DNA from: Eledone cirrhosa
Taxonomy: Eukaryota
NCBI GenBank assembly: GCA_964016885.1
Contig: OZ024759.1
Coordinates: forward strand, 15,500,001-15,564,000
Direction of reading: 5' to 3'
DNA: 64,000 nucleotides
Shown piece after piece: positions 17,146 through 61,742 of the stretch. Each line of letters opens with the position of its first letter. Position 1 is the first letter of the stretch. The translations under genes were made by a program, and so were the position numbers. The notes under the pieces are model-generated. The model ran no database searches. It saw only the letters and a program-made list of their open reading frames with translations, and had not been told where the DNA came from.

Positions 17146-17335
17146 GTTTATCCCGGGTTCAATCGGGGGTAACCACAGTAAGTAAGGTACTCAATACAAA
17201 GCAGAGTATAAATATTTAATATAGAAATGGCTTCTACAGGACTAGAACTGTTTCATTCCGGAGAAATCATCAGAAAACCGGCTTACTGATAATTTCTTCC
17301 GAATGAAGCAGTTCTAGTCCTGTAGAAACCATTTT
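17146..17335 (-). mobile_element. Family A fold-back element with hammerhead motifs (putative non-autonomous Penelope-like)
   Basis: Shared with 19909, 31032, 40772 and 61325; inverted arms around 17280. Confidence 0.8.
17229..17279 (-). ncRNA. Type I hammerhead ribozyme motif (family A)
   Basis: Minus strand GGUUUU-CUGAUGA-U UUC UCCG GAA U-GAAACAG UUCUAGUC CUGUA-GAAGCC; stems I, II and III pair; GUA cleavage triplet. Confidence 0.75.
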
Positions 17336-17794
17336 TACATTAACTATATATATATACGTTCGCCGTTGTTTGACTCAACAAGAAGTTTACTTAGTTTGGG
17401 TGTTAGGCTGGCCGATTCCAGACAGTTCCTAGCTAAGAGGTTCCTGGAGTATTAATAATAAAGAAGTGAAGAATAGCACCGACCTGCTGAACATCCTTGC
17501 TATTCTTCACTCTTATTATATATATATATATATATATAGAGAGAGAGAGAGGAGGAGGATAGCGAGAGGGAGAGAGAGAGAGATAGGGAGAGAGAGAGAA
17601 ATTGAAAATAGCATGGAAAATATATTTAAGGATCTGTTTTTCTTTATTGCCCCTTCTTTCATTCGTCAAAGTGACATTATTGAAAAAATGAGAGGGACAA
17701 TTCTTTAAAAAAAAAAGAGTTGTAATGTTTATGAAATATATATTATATATATAATATATATATACATTATATATATCCTTAAATGTCCCTTTAG

Positions 17795-17875
17795 ATGGTC
17801 GGACATAATGTTTTGCAGTATAGAGTTACGGCCCTTTACGGTCTGAGTTCAAATCCCGCAGAGGTTAACTTTGAC
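17795..17875 (+). mobile_element. SINE family 1 head fragment
   Basis: GTTACGGCCCTTTACGGTCTGAGTTCAAATCCCGCAGAGGTTAACTTTG. Confidence 0.8.
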
Positions 17876-19908
17876 TAAAAAAGAACGTGCTGAATAGAGT
17901 CAAAACATATTTAAACACAGTCTGTAGTTAGATAGATATTAAATAACTAAATGTACATAGTTGGGTTATGTCTTCTGTTGATTGTTTTTTTTCTTTTGAT
18001 ATTTTCAGATTCACTGTTCGTTAAACCTAAGGGTCAAATAACATTAAAAATACTACATAACTCGTTTCCTGAATTTATTAAATTCCGAATATAATTCAAT
18101 TTTCTACAAAAGCGAAGTTTCCAGGCTATATATATATATATATATATATATATATATATATAAATTCATACAAAATGTAGAAACGATTACGAATATTTCT
18201 AAAGACGAGAAGATGTTCACTGAGCAAAGCCGCTTCAGAACATAAATTTCGTAATAAAATTGAAAGGCTTCCAAACAATACAGAATTATTCATGGAATAA
18301 AGACTAGAAAGATCTTAACGAGAAAGGAGTCTCAACTGGTCAGTCCGTGTGAAAATTCCCACAATACATTTACATATTGCATGTACTCTCTTTGTTTTCT
18401 TATAAAGGGCGCCTAAGCGAGAATTTTATATATATATATATATATATATATATATATATATATATATATATAAGAGATTAATAAATGTTTGCTATATGGT
18501 TTTTATATATTTGATATATATATTATCCCTATCGAACCCTCTTCAGATTTTAGTCCTCACAGTTATTATTATTATTATTACTATATATATATATATATAT
18601 ATATATATATATGTGTGTGTGTGTGTGTGTGTGAAAGTAAGAGGTAGAAGGAGAGAGAAGGGGAGAAAGAGTATAGCAGTAAGGGAAGAGAAAAATACTT
18701 CTGCTTCGGTGTGACCTGTCTTTTTTAATTCTAATGTATCACATTCGCAACAACGCAGCAGGCCATTTTTTATTCATATATCTTTCCCCTTCGCTGTGAC
18801 CTGTCTTTCTGTCTTCCCTTACTGCTATCCTCTTTCTCCCCTTCTCTCTCCTTACTTTCCTTCACCCCTTCTGCTAGGCACCCTCTCTCGGCTAGCCTCT
18901 TCCTCACACTTTCATCCACTCACTCTCTGCTACTCACTCGCTCTCACTTCCGCCCGCCCTACCCATACCGAAATCCTTTTCTCGCTCACTTTTCGCATGG
19001 CAAAGATGCGTCTGTCGTCTTCTCGTCAAGGATTCGCTCGTTCTTATGTTCAGATGGATCACTGACTTGTTTTCCCCTTTTCCTCTCTTTACGTTGTCTT
19101 ACCATTTTTTTTGTTTACATGTCTCTCTTTTTCCGCCCAATTCTTTTTATCCCAATATCAATATCTTATTTTAGTTGTTGTTCGCACTGCTTTGAGGTAT
19201 CTGGTCTTTGTGCGAAGAAATATCTATGACGGCGAGAAGATCACTGATGATGAATAGTCACGTTTTATTTTTTTATATTTTAATCTTTTTTAATTCTAAT
19301 ATATATATATATATATATATATATACGCACACATATATAGAGATTTATACATATATAGATTTATACATAGCTATATATATATATATATATATATATATAT
19401 AATCTATATATGTATATATATATGTATAAATCTATATATATGTGTATATATATAAATCTATATATGTATATATTATATAAATCTATATATATGTGTATAT
19501 ATATAAATCTATGTATATATATATATAAATCTATATATATGTGTATATATATATGTGTGTATATATATATATATATATGTATATATATATGTGTATATAT
19601 ATATGTATATATATATATATGTATATATATATATGTATATATATATATATGTATATATATATATGTGTGTATATATATATATATATATGTATATATATAT
19701 GTGTATATATATATGTATATATATATATATGTATATATATATATATGTATATATATATGTGTATATATATATGTATATATATATATATATATATATGTAT
19801 ATATATATATATATATATATATGTATATATATATATGTGTGTATATATATATGTGTATATATATATATGTGTATATATATATATATATATATATATATAT
19901 ATATATCA

Positions 19909-20066
19909 GTTATTCCGGGTTGAATCGGAGGTAACCACAGTAAGTAAGGTACTCAATACATAGCAGAGTATAAAAGTTTTAATATATATGAGATTCTACA
20001 GGACTAGAACTGTTTCATTCTTTAGAAATCATCAGGAATCAGGATTCCTGATGATTTCTAAAGAAT
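19909..20066 (-). mobile_element. Family A fold-back element (second arm truncated)
   Basis: GTTATTCCGGGTTGAATCGGAGGTAACCACAGTAAGTAAGGTACTCAATAC… abutting a TA array. Confidence 0.85.
19992..20040 (-). ncRNA. Type I hammerhead ribozyme motif (family A)
   Basis: GAUUC-CUGAUGA-U UUC UAAA GAA U-GAAACAG UUCUAGUC CUGUA-GAAUC. Confidence 0.8.
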
Positions 20067-20254
20067 ATATATTCACAGAAAGAAGCCTTAACATACACAC
20101 ACTAGGACATACATACATACACATTAACGTATATATATATATACAGACATACATTCATTTATACTCAAAAGAAAGAATTGTAATAAAGGCAAGATGTTAA
20201 GACGCCAAAAAATAACAATATTAAAAGCAGTCTAAACAAGAAAACCACCAACAT

Positions 20255-60010: not shown

Positions 60011-60109
60011 GAAGTAGTTTTAGATTGATGTGTGATATTGGGAAAAATATTTTATTTACATTATATATATATATATATATATATATATATATATATATGT
60101 ATATATTTA

Positions 60110-60572
60110 TGTCAGGTAACCAGTTGGTGCTACTGGTAACATGTATCCCAGTACAACCTGTCTCATGGTCGGGTCGTTGGCTACTAAACTGGCAACCCAC
60201 CAAGGTTTCTTGGTGAGGAGGGTGACTTTGGACATCCTCTAGGACTAAAAACAAAACCTGTCAAAGGGAAAAGGAGCTCTTAAGAGTCAATGGCCATCCA
60301 AAATCACCGGGAGAGATGACCCCTTAGCCTTTGTCAAGGCAGAATTCTATGAAAGAGAAAACTCTGATATAACACCTGCAACTCTGATGGTATCCAATGA
60401 TGTTGACTTGTTCTTCTTTTTGGTAAATATCATCTTGGTTAAGAGAGTGGGACTGGCTTTGTGCAGTGCCTTTGCTCACTATAAAAGCTTCACGGCACAG
60501 GCATTGCTTTATATCTGGAGATCTCTCTGCACTTGTCATCACATGGTACCATAGGCCCAGCACTATGTGTCA
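60110..60572 (+). mobile_element. Copy of the 31603-32211 repeat in the opposite orientation
   Basis: Reverse-complement match over ~460 bp, flanked by TA arrays. Confidence 0.9.
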
Positions 60573-61324
60573 ATATATATATGTATATATATATATGTAT
60601 ATATATATATATATATATATATATATATATATATACATATATACATATATATGTATGTATACATATATATATATACATATATATGTATGTATACATATAT
60701 ATATATATATATATACACATATATATGTATGTATACATATATATATATGTATATATATATGTATACATATATATCTATGGATATATATATGTATACATAT
60801 ATATATATATGGATATATATATGTATACATATATATATGGATATATATATATGTATACATACATATATATGTGTATATATATATAATACATACATATATA
60901 TATATATATATGTGTGTGTGTATATATATATATATATATATGTATTTATTGTGTATATATATATATATTTATATATATATATGTGTGTGTGTGTATTTAT
61001 TGTGTATATATATATATAATAAGTTGGCGGAACTAGTTTAGGTATCACTCTTAGGACTGGTTACAGCTCAGCGTACTCAATAGGTAGTGTTCAACAAACT
61101 CCTAGAGTATACACAGAGTTATTCGCTTCAATACAACACAAGTAAACGGGTACCTTCAGGACTTCCCGAACTCAAGTTTCGGCCACACTTAATGCGGCAA
61201 TAGGGTGCACTGCACCCTCTGTCCTTATATATTATTCAACAATGCACAATCGGCGCATAAGGCTTCATGACCGAATTTCACCTAATCAATAACTATTCGA
61301 TCGACGGAATATATATATATAATA

Positions 61325-61518
61325 TTTAATATGGAAATGGCTTCTACAGGACTAGAACTATTTCATTCGAAGAAAATCACCAGGAAACCGCTGATGGTTA
61401 CTTTCAAATGAAACAGCGCTAGTCCTGGATAACCCCATTTGTATATTATATATTGCATATACTCTACTATGTATTGAGAACCTTACTTACTGTAGTTAAC
61501 CACGATTGAAATAGGGGC
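61325..61518 (+). mobile_element. Family A fold-back, degenerate
   Basis: ATGGCTTCTACAGGACTAGAAC…CTGATGG…GAAACAGCGCTAGTCC…TATTGAGAACCTTACTTACTG. Confidence 0.75.
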
Positions 61519-61547
61519 ACACACATGCAGACATATATATGTATATA

Positions 61548-61742
61548 TATAGTAAAAAGTATGACCCCGACGGCTGAGCTCAAGCCGTTTCGACGGCTAT
61601 TCTGGACTAGAAATAGCCGTCGACACGGCTTGGGCTCTGCCGTCGGGGTCATACTTTTTCCTATTTCCCACTCTACTACCCTAAGTATTGAGTATTCTGG
61701 TGCGTTGTGGTCCATCTGCTTCCTTACCATAATTCCTTTGTT
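61548..61742 (+). mobile_element. Family B fold-back, diverged
   Basis: GACCCCGACGGCTGAGCTCAAGCCGTTTCGACGGCTA…GCCGTCGGGGTC plus tail. Confidence 0.85.

Follow-up and report, generated by a model that had tools for sequence, protein, structure and literature searches.

The 64,000-nt stretch of Eledone cirrhosa DNA analysed here (assembly GCA_964016885.1, contig OZ024759.1, positions 15,500,001 to 15,564,000, forward strand; hereafter the window, in whose coordinates all positions are given) carries short hammerhead-ribozyme repeats of five families, A to E, three of which share an exact 10-mer, TATTGAGTAC, downstream of the ribozyme. On balance we favour the reading that this 10-mer makes up the 3′ strand of a bulged hairpin predicted in the RNA, at the start of an optional 3′ tail, that the families are likely the 3′ ends of Penelope-like elements (PLEs) of the Hydra clade, and that the hairpin likely binds the reverse transcriptase (RT) and positions internal initiation just 5′ of itself. 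The hairpin is a real, conserved structural element that is present across phyla, and it opens the optional Penelope tail; we infer its role in positioning the RT.

The copies are 60–500 nt long and non-coding, with no open reading frame (ORF) of 100 amino acids inside any element. They sit in TA-rich repeats, their ends run into TA-rich sequence, and nine of the 11 tailed copies have a 5′-truncated, head-to-head inverted arm adjoining their 5′ end. A descriptor search of the window predicts, from sequence, seven full minimal type I hammerheads with a palindromic helix III, in families A, C and D. A CUGANGA core within 60 nt of GAAA is missing from all eight B and E arms, so that these families keep the 3′ half of the ribozyme only. 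The family letters were mapped from the coordinates of an earlier note on this DNA, and the family that it called D was taken to be the element at 61848–62212. The elements, their hairpins and three solo copies are as follows.

17150..17334, minus strand: element A1, a tailed direct arm plus a tail-less inverted arm that grades into (TA)n slightly past 17334; full minimal hammerhead, core at 17273.
17187..17208, minus strand: bulged hairpin of A1, 27 nt past the cleavage triplet GUA, which ends at 17235; the motif (17187–17196) is its 3′ strand.
19912..20066, minus strand: element A2, hammerhead core at 20035, short inverted arm.
19949..19970, minus strand: bulged hairpin of A2.
31036..31222, minus strand: element A3, core at 31159, stem I of 8 bp; the inverted arm stops 18 nt short of the hairpin base.
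31073..31094, minus strand: bulged hairpin of A3.
40776..40900, plus strand: element A4, without an inverted arm, stem I unpaired.
40842..40864, plus strand: bulged hairpin of A4, with one U-G pair in the lower stem.
61316..61510, plus strand: element A5, decayed; the inverted arm stops at the hairpin base.
61460..61481, plus strand: bulged hairpin of A5, decayed, with one lower-stem mismatch and upper stem UAC/GUA.
43346..43549, plus strand: element B1, 3′ half of the hammerhead only; the inverted arm stops at −5.
43477..43503, plus strand: bulged hairpin of B1.
55207..55404, minus strand: element B2; the inverted arm stops at −5.
55253..55279, minus strand: bulged hairpin of B2.
61549..61741, plus strand: element B3; the inverted arm stops at −5.
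61669..61695, plus strand: bulged hairpin of B3.
53712..54226, minus strand: the C element, hammerhead with a CCGAAGA core at 53957 and a 157-nt tail; the inverted arm stops at −3.
53832..53869, minus strand: bulged hairpin of C, lower stem GCUC/GAGC, upper stem of 6 bp.
61848..62212, plus strand: the D element, whose inverted arm has an intact hammerhead (core at 61955, minus strand) and whose direct arm has a mutated core; the inverted arm stops at +1.
62133..62160, plus strand: bulged hairpin of D, with a UA bulge.
61018..61232, minus strand: the E element, 3′ half of the hammerhead only, without an inverted arm.
61073..61109, minus strand: bulged hairpin of E, upper stem UAGG/CCUA.
30940..31006, plus strand: solo tail-less A copy, stopping at −5.
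17017..17077, minus strand: solo tail-less B copy, stopping at −5.
59837..60006, minus strand: solo tail-less D copy, stopping at +1.

All seven exact copies of TATTGAGTAC lie where the earlier note had placed them, against a shuffle mean of 0.35 (0/100 shuffles reach seven). They come from three families (A, four; B, two; E, one), and the raw count is inflated by copy number; by hand arithmetic from the shuffle rate, the chance of finding one 10-mer in three dissimilar families, each time no more than about 100 nt 3′ of the hammerhead, is ~1e-4. One-mismatch matches stand at chance level (15 against 11.97 expected; 21/100 shuffles reach 15), so that only context supports the three variants that the note had listed. 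These belong to elements (61472 to an A copy, 61686 to a B copy and 53832 to the C copy), and the remaining six one-mismatch matches fail the strict hairpin descriptor described below. Every element motif site lies 3′ of the hammerhead cleavage position on the same strand, as had been claimed, with the qualification that the ribozyme of B and E is a 3′ half and that the triplet of A5 is mutated.

The conserved unit is the hairpin, rather than the 10-mer first proposed. It consists of RCUC, an upper stem of 3–6 bp, a 2-nt bulge and GAGY, followed by AC; it measures 19–34 nt, with a spacer of 11–26 nt between the lower-stem strands, and starts 25–52 nt past the hammerhead cleavage triplet. The upstream pairing partner of the motif is present in all five families. 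This includes D, from which the motif had been reported absent: if D is indeed the 61848–62212 element, it carries a variant with a full hairpin that had been overlooked. In the lower stem, ACUC pairs with GAGU in four families (A, B, D and E) and GCUC with GAGC in the fifth, C; the bulge is UU except in D, where it is UA. The upper stem differs by family, being UGC/GUA in A, UACU/AGUA in B, UAGG/CCUA in E, UGUAAA/UUUACA in C and CAGU/ACUG in D.

A strict descriptor of this structure accepts nine of the 80 T[TA]GAG[CT] sites in the window, namely nine of the ten element sites and none of the 70 others. For the nine passing copies, which represent all five families, shuffling the upstream 45 nt yields a strict pass in 0.7–9% of cases. 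Across seven of the 11 copies, from four families, pairing holds in 55 of 56 cells, and in three of the pairs both partners have changed; the covariation score is reached by none of 500 shuffles, a control that ignores relatedness, and slid controls pair at ≤44%. These pair counts omit B, which MAFFT misregistered along with a metagenome locus (L220, below), and the near-identical A2; a model-fitted alignment that included two non-element matches was not relied on. With a model built without family B, B1 and B2 rank 9th and 10th of 13 matches (E 0.19 and 0.21), directly after the A, E, D and C copies, with B3 12th and two non-element matches among the 13.

A reading of the motif as chance, or as a relic of shared ancestry with no function, is hardly tenable and already largely refuted. 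The evidence comes from only five families in one window, relaxed pairing arises in 2–35% of shuffles, and metagenome hammerhead repeats yielded the same 9-mer without a strict hairpin. Against these points stand the low strict shuffle rates in each of the five families, the compensatory changes, the presence of the hairpin in two other phyla, and the dissimilarity of the families elsewhere: outside the hairpin they are no more alike than shuffles (masked local scores of 11–18 against shuffled means of 15–20).

Copy ends cluster at the base of the hairpin. An end survey of the window kept 23 arms of 24 BLAST rows, a D row at −112 being dropped because the D reference contained part of its own inverted arm. 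The ends are bimodal: 11 are distal, 50–157 nt past the hairpin base, and nine are proximal, between −5 and +1 (two in A, four in B, one in C and two in D; three of the nine are solo copies). Three A arms stop further 5′, at −18, −24 and −47, the −24 arm reaching about 0 in another analysis, and none of the 23 arms in the window ends inside the hairpin or the tail. Many hammerhead copies lack the motif, then, because they stop just before the hairpin. An inverted 5′ copy together with an optional tail at one end is the PLE pattern in PMC8557442 and PMC3846280.

The proximal ends also bear on a distinctly unlikely account in which the hairpin is a 5′-leader signal of the full-length element (part of a promoter, or a control on RNA stability, on export or on translation), with pairing between an AU-rich linker and (TA)n as the sole determinant of the proximal ends. 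All nine proximal ends enter TA-rich sequence, one sea cucumber consensus (Hydra-1_Ajap, below) has the hairpin at its very start, upstream of the ORF, and pseudo-long terminal repeats (pLTRs) can contain TATA and initiator-like sequences according to PMC3846280. Such an account sits poorly with the four B proximal ends, which share the exact position −5 and have just 3 nt of microhomology, and both the upper-stem covariation and the 11–26-nt spacer are ill-suited to a DNA promoter word. Covariation likewise disfavours a plain promoter word, one of the functions that had been suggested for the 10-mer.

Returning to the RT-positioning hairpin, its proposed mode of action can be set out in a few steps. 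The RT-endonuclease protein would bind the hairpin-bearing tail of the RNA; one cut target strand would prime at the distal RNA end, giving the tailed arm, while the other would prime at the hairpin base, giving the tail-less arm, and the two short complementary DNAs (cDNAs) would join head-to-head. The template would be uncut or re-ligated RNA, because the copies span the cleavage site, and a separate autonomous parent may exist for each family. [quoted passage not shown]

Several features of the families concern their structure more broadly. The C core CCGAAGA (U4C) occurs in both arms, at 53930–53957 (minus strand) and 54141 (plus strand). The 5′ limits of the arms are recurrent rather than random: the A arms all begin within about 10 nt of the hammerhead core, and all B fold-backs (43346–43469, 55287–55404 and 61549–61662) reverse at one shared point immediately 5′ of GAAA, which would place the turn in stem II; a fold-back there may account for the recurrent B apex. 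A further hairpin, with covarying arms, lies at the distal end of the A tail (17150–17176, 19912–19938, 31036–31062 and 40874–40900), the arms being CCCG/CGGG in A1 and A4 and UCCG/CGGA in A2 and A3. Judged by eye, a pseudoknot could arise from pairing of its loop with upstream sequence, and a comparable hairpin may exist in B.

Comparison with autonomous elements extends the hairpin to other animals. Six new autonomous Hydra consensi (PMC8557442 File S7) were inspected by eye, and the same hairpin is seen in three: Hydra-2_Amil from a coral and Hydra-2_Ajap and Hydra-1_Ajap from a sea cucumber. In Hydra-2_Amil and Hydra-2_Ajap its lower stem is GCUC/GAGC, the bulge is UU or UA and the upper stem is 7 or 4 bp long; AC follows, and the hairpin lies about 40 nt past the triplet. 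The Hydra-1_Ajap consensus has no tail at its end and starts 2 nt upstream of the same hairpin. Across the whole PMC8557442 supplement the 8-mer core has at least 18 sense-strand sites (line breaks hide some), and by eye, all three of the three sites in Hydra files are able to form the hairpin, against one of the 15 sites in Naiad and Chlamys files. That one site, in the 3′ untranslated region of Naiad_Mmer, can form the hairpin, lies far from the element end and was set aside as probable chance. A 12-mer of the Hydra-1_Obim hammerhead has no match in the window. In these full-length PLEs, where the earlier note had advised looking for the motif, three of the six consensi have the hairpin, one has a variant and two are without it. 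The suggestion of a conserved cis signal tied to a Penelope-type RT gains support from the covarying pairs, the ends clustered at the hairpin base and the hairpin in the autonomous Hydra consensi. More tentatively, Hydra-clade PLEs across animal phyla could share a bulged RNA hairpin that their telomerase-related RT binds so as to start copying internally, immediately 5′ of it.

The same consensi speak against a single autonomous partner. One may suppose that a lone autonomous element of this genome serves all five families, themselves non-autonomous, and that the motif is that partner's private recognition word; three dissimilar families do share the exact 10-mer, none encodes a protein, and non-autonomous hammerhead repeats have been argued to derive from and use PLEs (10.64898/2026.07.22.740005). 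Sharing is, however, explained at the level of the clade by autonomous coral and sea cucumber elements that carry the hairpin, and C and D are as far removed from A, B and E as the Hydra consensi are. We therefore hold a private partner to be highly improbable: the common partner that had been postulated is not required when autonomous elements of distant animals have the hairpin, and none was found in the window.

Sequences outside the PLE consensi were scanned with the motif. A viral scan, serving as a control, gave 112 motif matches, one with hammerhead stems and none with a strict hairpin; a metagenome scan gave 116 motif loci from 13 of 64 parts, 28 of them with hammerhead stems and none passing the strict descriptor. 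Most of the metagenome loci are repeats with a different conserved pair, and all except L220 were rejected as support. The 9-mer is not general among metagenome hammerheads, because only ten of 33 unselected flank hammerheads have TTGAG downstream, and these come from few families and duplicated loci. A hairpin model run on 99 of the 116 loci gave four weak matches (E 2.7–9.2) and missed L220, a locus with a window-like layout in which a hammerhead has an inverted arm stopping a few nucleotides before a similar hairpin.

The metagenome loci contain other arrangements. Abundant minimal-hammerhead repeats (L115, L130, L136, L152, L153, L177, L179, L187, L207, L214 and neighbours) have a GTGCAT-like box and ATGCACGG downstream; ATGCACGG occurs in 13 of the 33 unselected hammerhead copies, and some copies stop between the two boxes. 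This pair is possibly the tail structure of another clade. L139, L168, L173, L191, L206, L212, L216 and L226 form one repeat family with a hammerhead-like core and an atypical cleavage region followed by the 9-mer, and L082, L119 and L204 are full-stem hammerheads in viral or microbial contigs, without a strict hairpin.

A number of observations weigh against the RT-positioning reading and the Hydra-clade assignment. The structure was defined after A, B and E had been seen. The predicted hairpin has little stability (−3.6 to −8.3 kcal/mol, z −0.5 to −2.6), the upper stem of family A falls outside the minimum-energy fold, and the opposite strand folds equally well or better in A, B, D and E. 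The proximal ends overlap TAT/TATA microhomology to the target, which could set the ends without the hairpin and blurs them by several bases; the tails, at 50–157 nt, are longer than the published 30–40 nt of PLE tails. Among the consensi inspected by eye, Hydra-1_Crog has a one-mismatch variant of the hairpin, and in Hydra-1_Amil and Hydra-1_Obim (two of six) it was not seen. L220 passes a relaxed descriptor only, fails the strict descriptor and the model search, and had been picked by its motif. Finally, no Penelope ORF was found in the window, where five ORFs were scanned and the two that match RVT_1 both lie away from the elements, and the clade assignment is indirect for this reason.

The folding of the opposite strand invites a rival in which the same hairpin acts on that strand or as DNA, whether in an antisense template, in minus-strand cDNA, or as a GIY-YIG endonuclease site cutting at the tail boundary when an intermediate is resolved. 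Folding of the antisense strand is at least as strong (−11.1 against −8.3 in E, with an added G-U pair in A), an antisense self-priming model has been proposed for head-to-head palindromes (PMC3846280), and the tail is reported as necessary for endonuclease recognition in D. virilis (cited in PMC11167929) and ascribed to endonuclease resolution in PMC8557442. In favour of the hammerhead strand, the G-U pairs in the A upper stem, the A4 lower stem and the D closing pair work only there, the Hydra consensi, inspected by eye, do not preserve the additional antisense pair, and the D arms are unequal in length and so fit two cDNAs better than a single fold-back. We consider the antisense or DNA account unlikely, and lean towards a hairpin acting in the hammerhead-strand RNA.

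The remainder of the window is rich in AT and microsatellites, with content resembling short and long interspersed nuclear elements (SINEs and LINEs), a composition that suggests animal DNA. Two long ORFs with RVT_1 matches, at 14440–15750 and 23906–25867 (both minus strand), are unrelated to the hairpin elements, and we take them from their motifs to be LINE-type. Broken ORF pieces without Pfam matches lie at 36766–37321 and 32888–33478 (both minus strand); the former presumably resembles the C-terminal end of a restriction-like-endonuclease retrotransposon. Long inverted repeats in which no hammerhead or hairpin was detected occur at 9765–10164, 28291–28474, 30064–30402 and 44077–44662, of which 30064–30402 encloses a SINE-like copy and 44077–44662 may be a DNA-transposon derivative. 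A SINE-like dispersed family of about 190 nt has more than ten copies or pieces, including 2900–3475, 8746–8921, 25789–25978, 30122–30322, 34041–34772 and 39950–40132, and two more dispersed families are found at 26763–27112/42919–43236 and at 31607–32207/54443–54656/57192–57403/60115–60537. An Rfam scan of the window gave no match at gathering score; of 734 matches by E-value, the 150 listed were microRNA hairpin models on microsatellites and fold-backs, and were rejected.

The finding bears on how the RTs of PLEs, the closest relatives of telomerase, choose their RNA, and on why copies bear an optional tail. A hairpin of 19–34 nt with natural compensatory variants at the tail boundary offers an exact target for binding, probing and rescue tests, and a marker for Hydra-type elements and their true ends in repeat libraries. 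If the proposal holds, two priming events would explain both the Penelope tail and the head-to-head insertions, and other clades would place a structure of their own at the same spot; the metagenome repeats do show a conserved pair of another kind. Elements of this type are known, and the hairpin itself is apparently new: no description of it was found in the literature, nor of the 10-mer among the papers listed, in a search outside which lay most subscription papers, Repbase and several supplements.

By class, the copies have the marks of pLTR derivatives, namely a hammerhead with palindromic helix III (in A, C and D), an adjoining inverted copy and an optional tail at one end, and they share (TA)n insertion with the Hydra clade. 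Neither the elements nor the scanned window ORFs hold an ORF combining a telomerase-like RT with a GIY-YIG endonuclease, as an autonomous PLE would, and no direct partial tandem (pLTR-ORF-pLTR) occurs among the copies in the window. Identity with non-LTR retrozymes was rejected, the copies being solo or head-to-head rather than head-to-tail tandem units, and with no Rfam match at gathering score they belong to no described RNA family there.

More widely, LINE and SINE 3′ stem-loops, the hepatitis B epsilon and telomerase RNA elements are small structured cis elements that recruit or position an RT; with different enzymes and folds, they offer a functional analogy only. The short, non-coding type I hammerhead repeats known as non-LTR retrozymes resemble the window copies and are related to pLTRs, although they form head-to-tail tandems (PMC7229834 and 10.64898/2026.07.22.740005). 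The minimal dimeric type I hammerheads of PLEs (Cervera and De la Pena 2014, PMC4209133) share the palindromic helix III, solo motifs and close opposite-strand pairs, whereas that paper deals with the ribozyme only and B and E of the window keep just its 3′ half. The Hydra clade (Craig et al. 2021, PMC8557442) resembles the window families in its (TA)n insertion, its hammerhead near the 3′ end, the hairpin in three of six consensi and, in File S2, a stem II flanked on either side by U, a trait of family A too. That paper defines the clade by protein features (RWK, DKT, a CxCX5C linker and no CCHH), while the window copies are non-coding; its Hydra-clade text makes no mention of the hairpin, and it notes that (TA)n insertion is not unique to Hydra, being shared by Naiads. 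Anolis Poseidon (Frangieh et al. 2024, PMC11167929) is like the window in having two classes of 3′ end past the hammerhead with the tail between them. Its internal starts were mapped in vitro and its binding element was defined only as a region; the Poseidon start lies in an AC-rich stem-loop within the ORF, with tails of 30–40 nt, whereas the proximal end in the window coincides with the 5′ base of a hairpin common to all five families.

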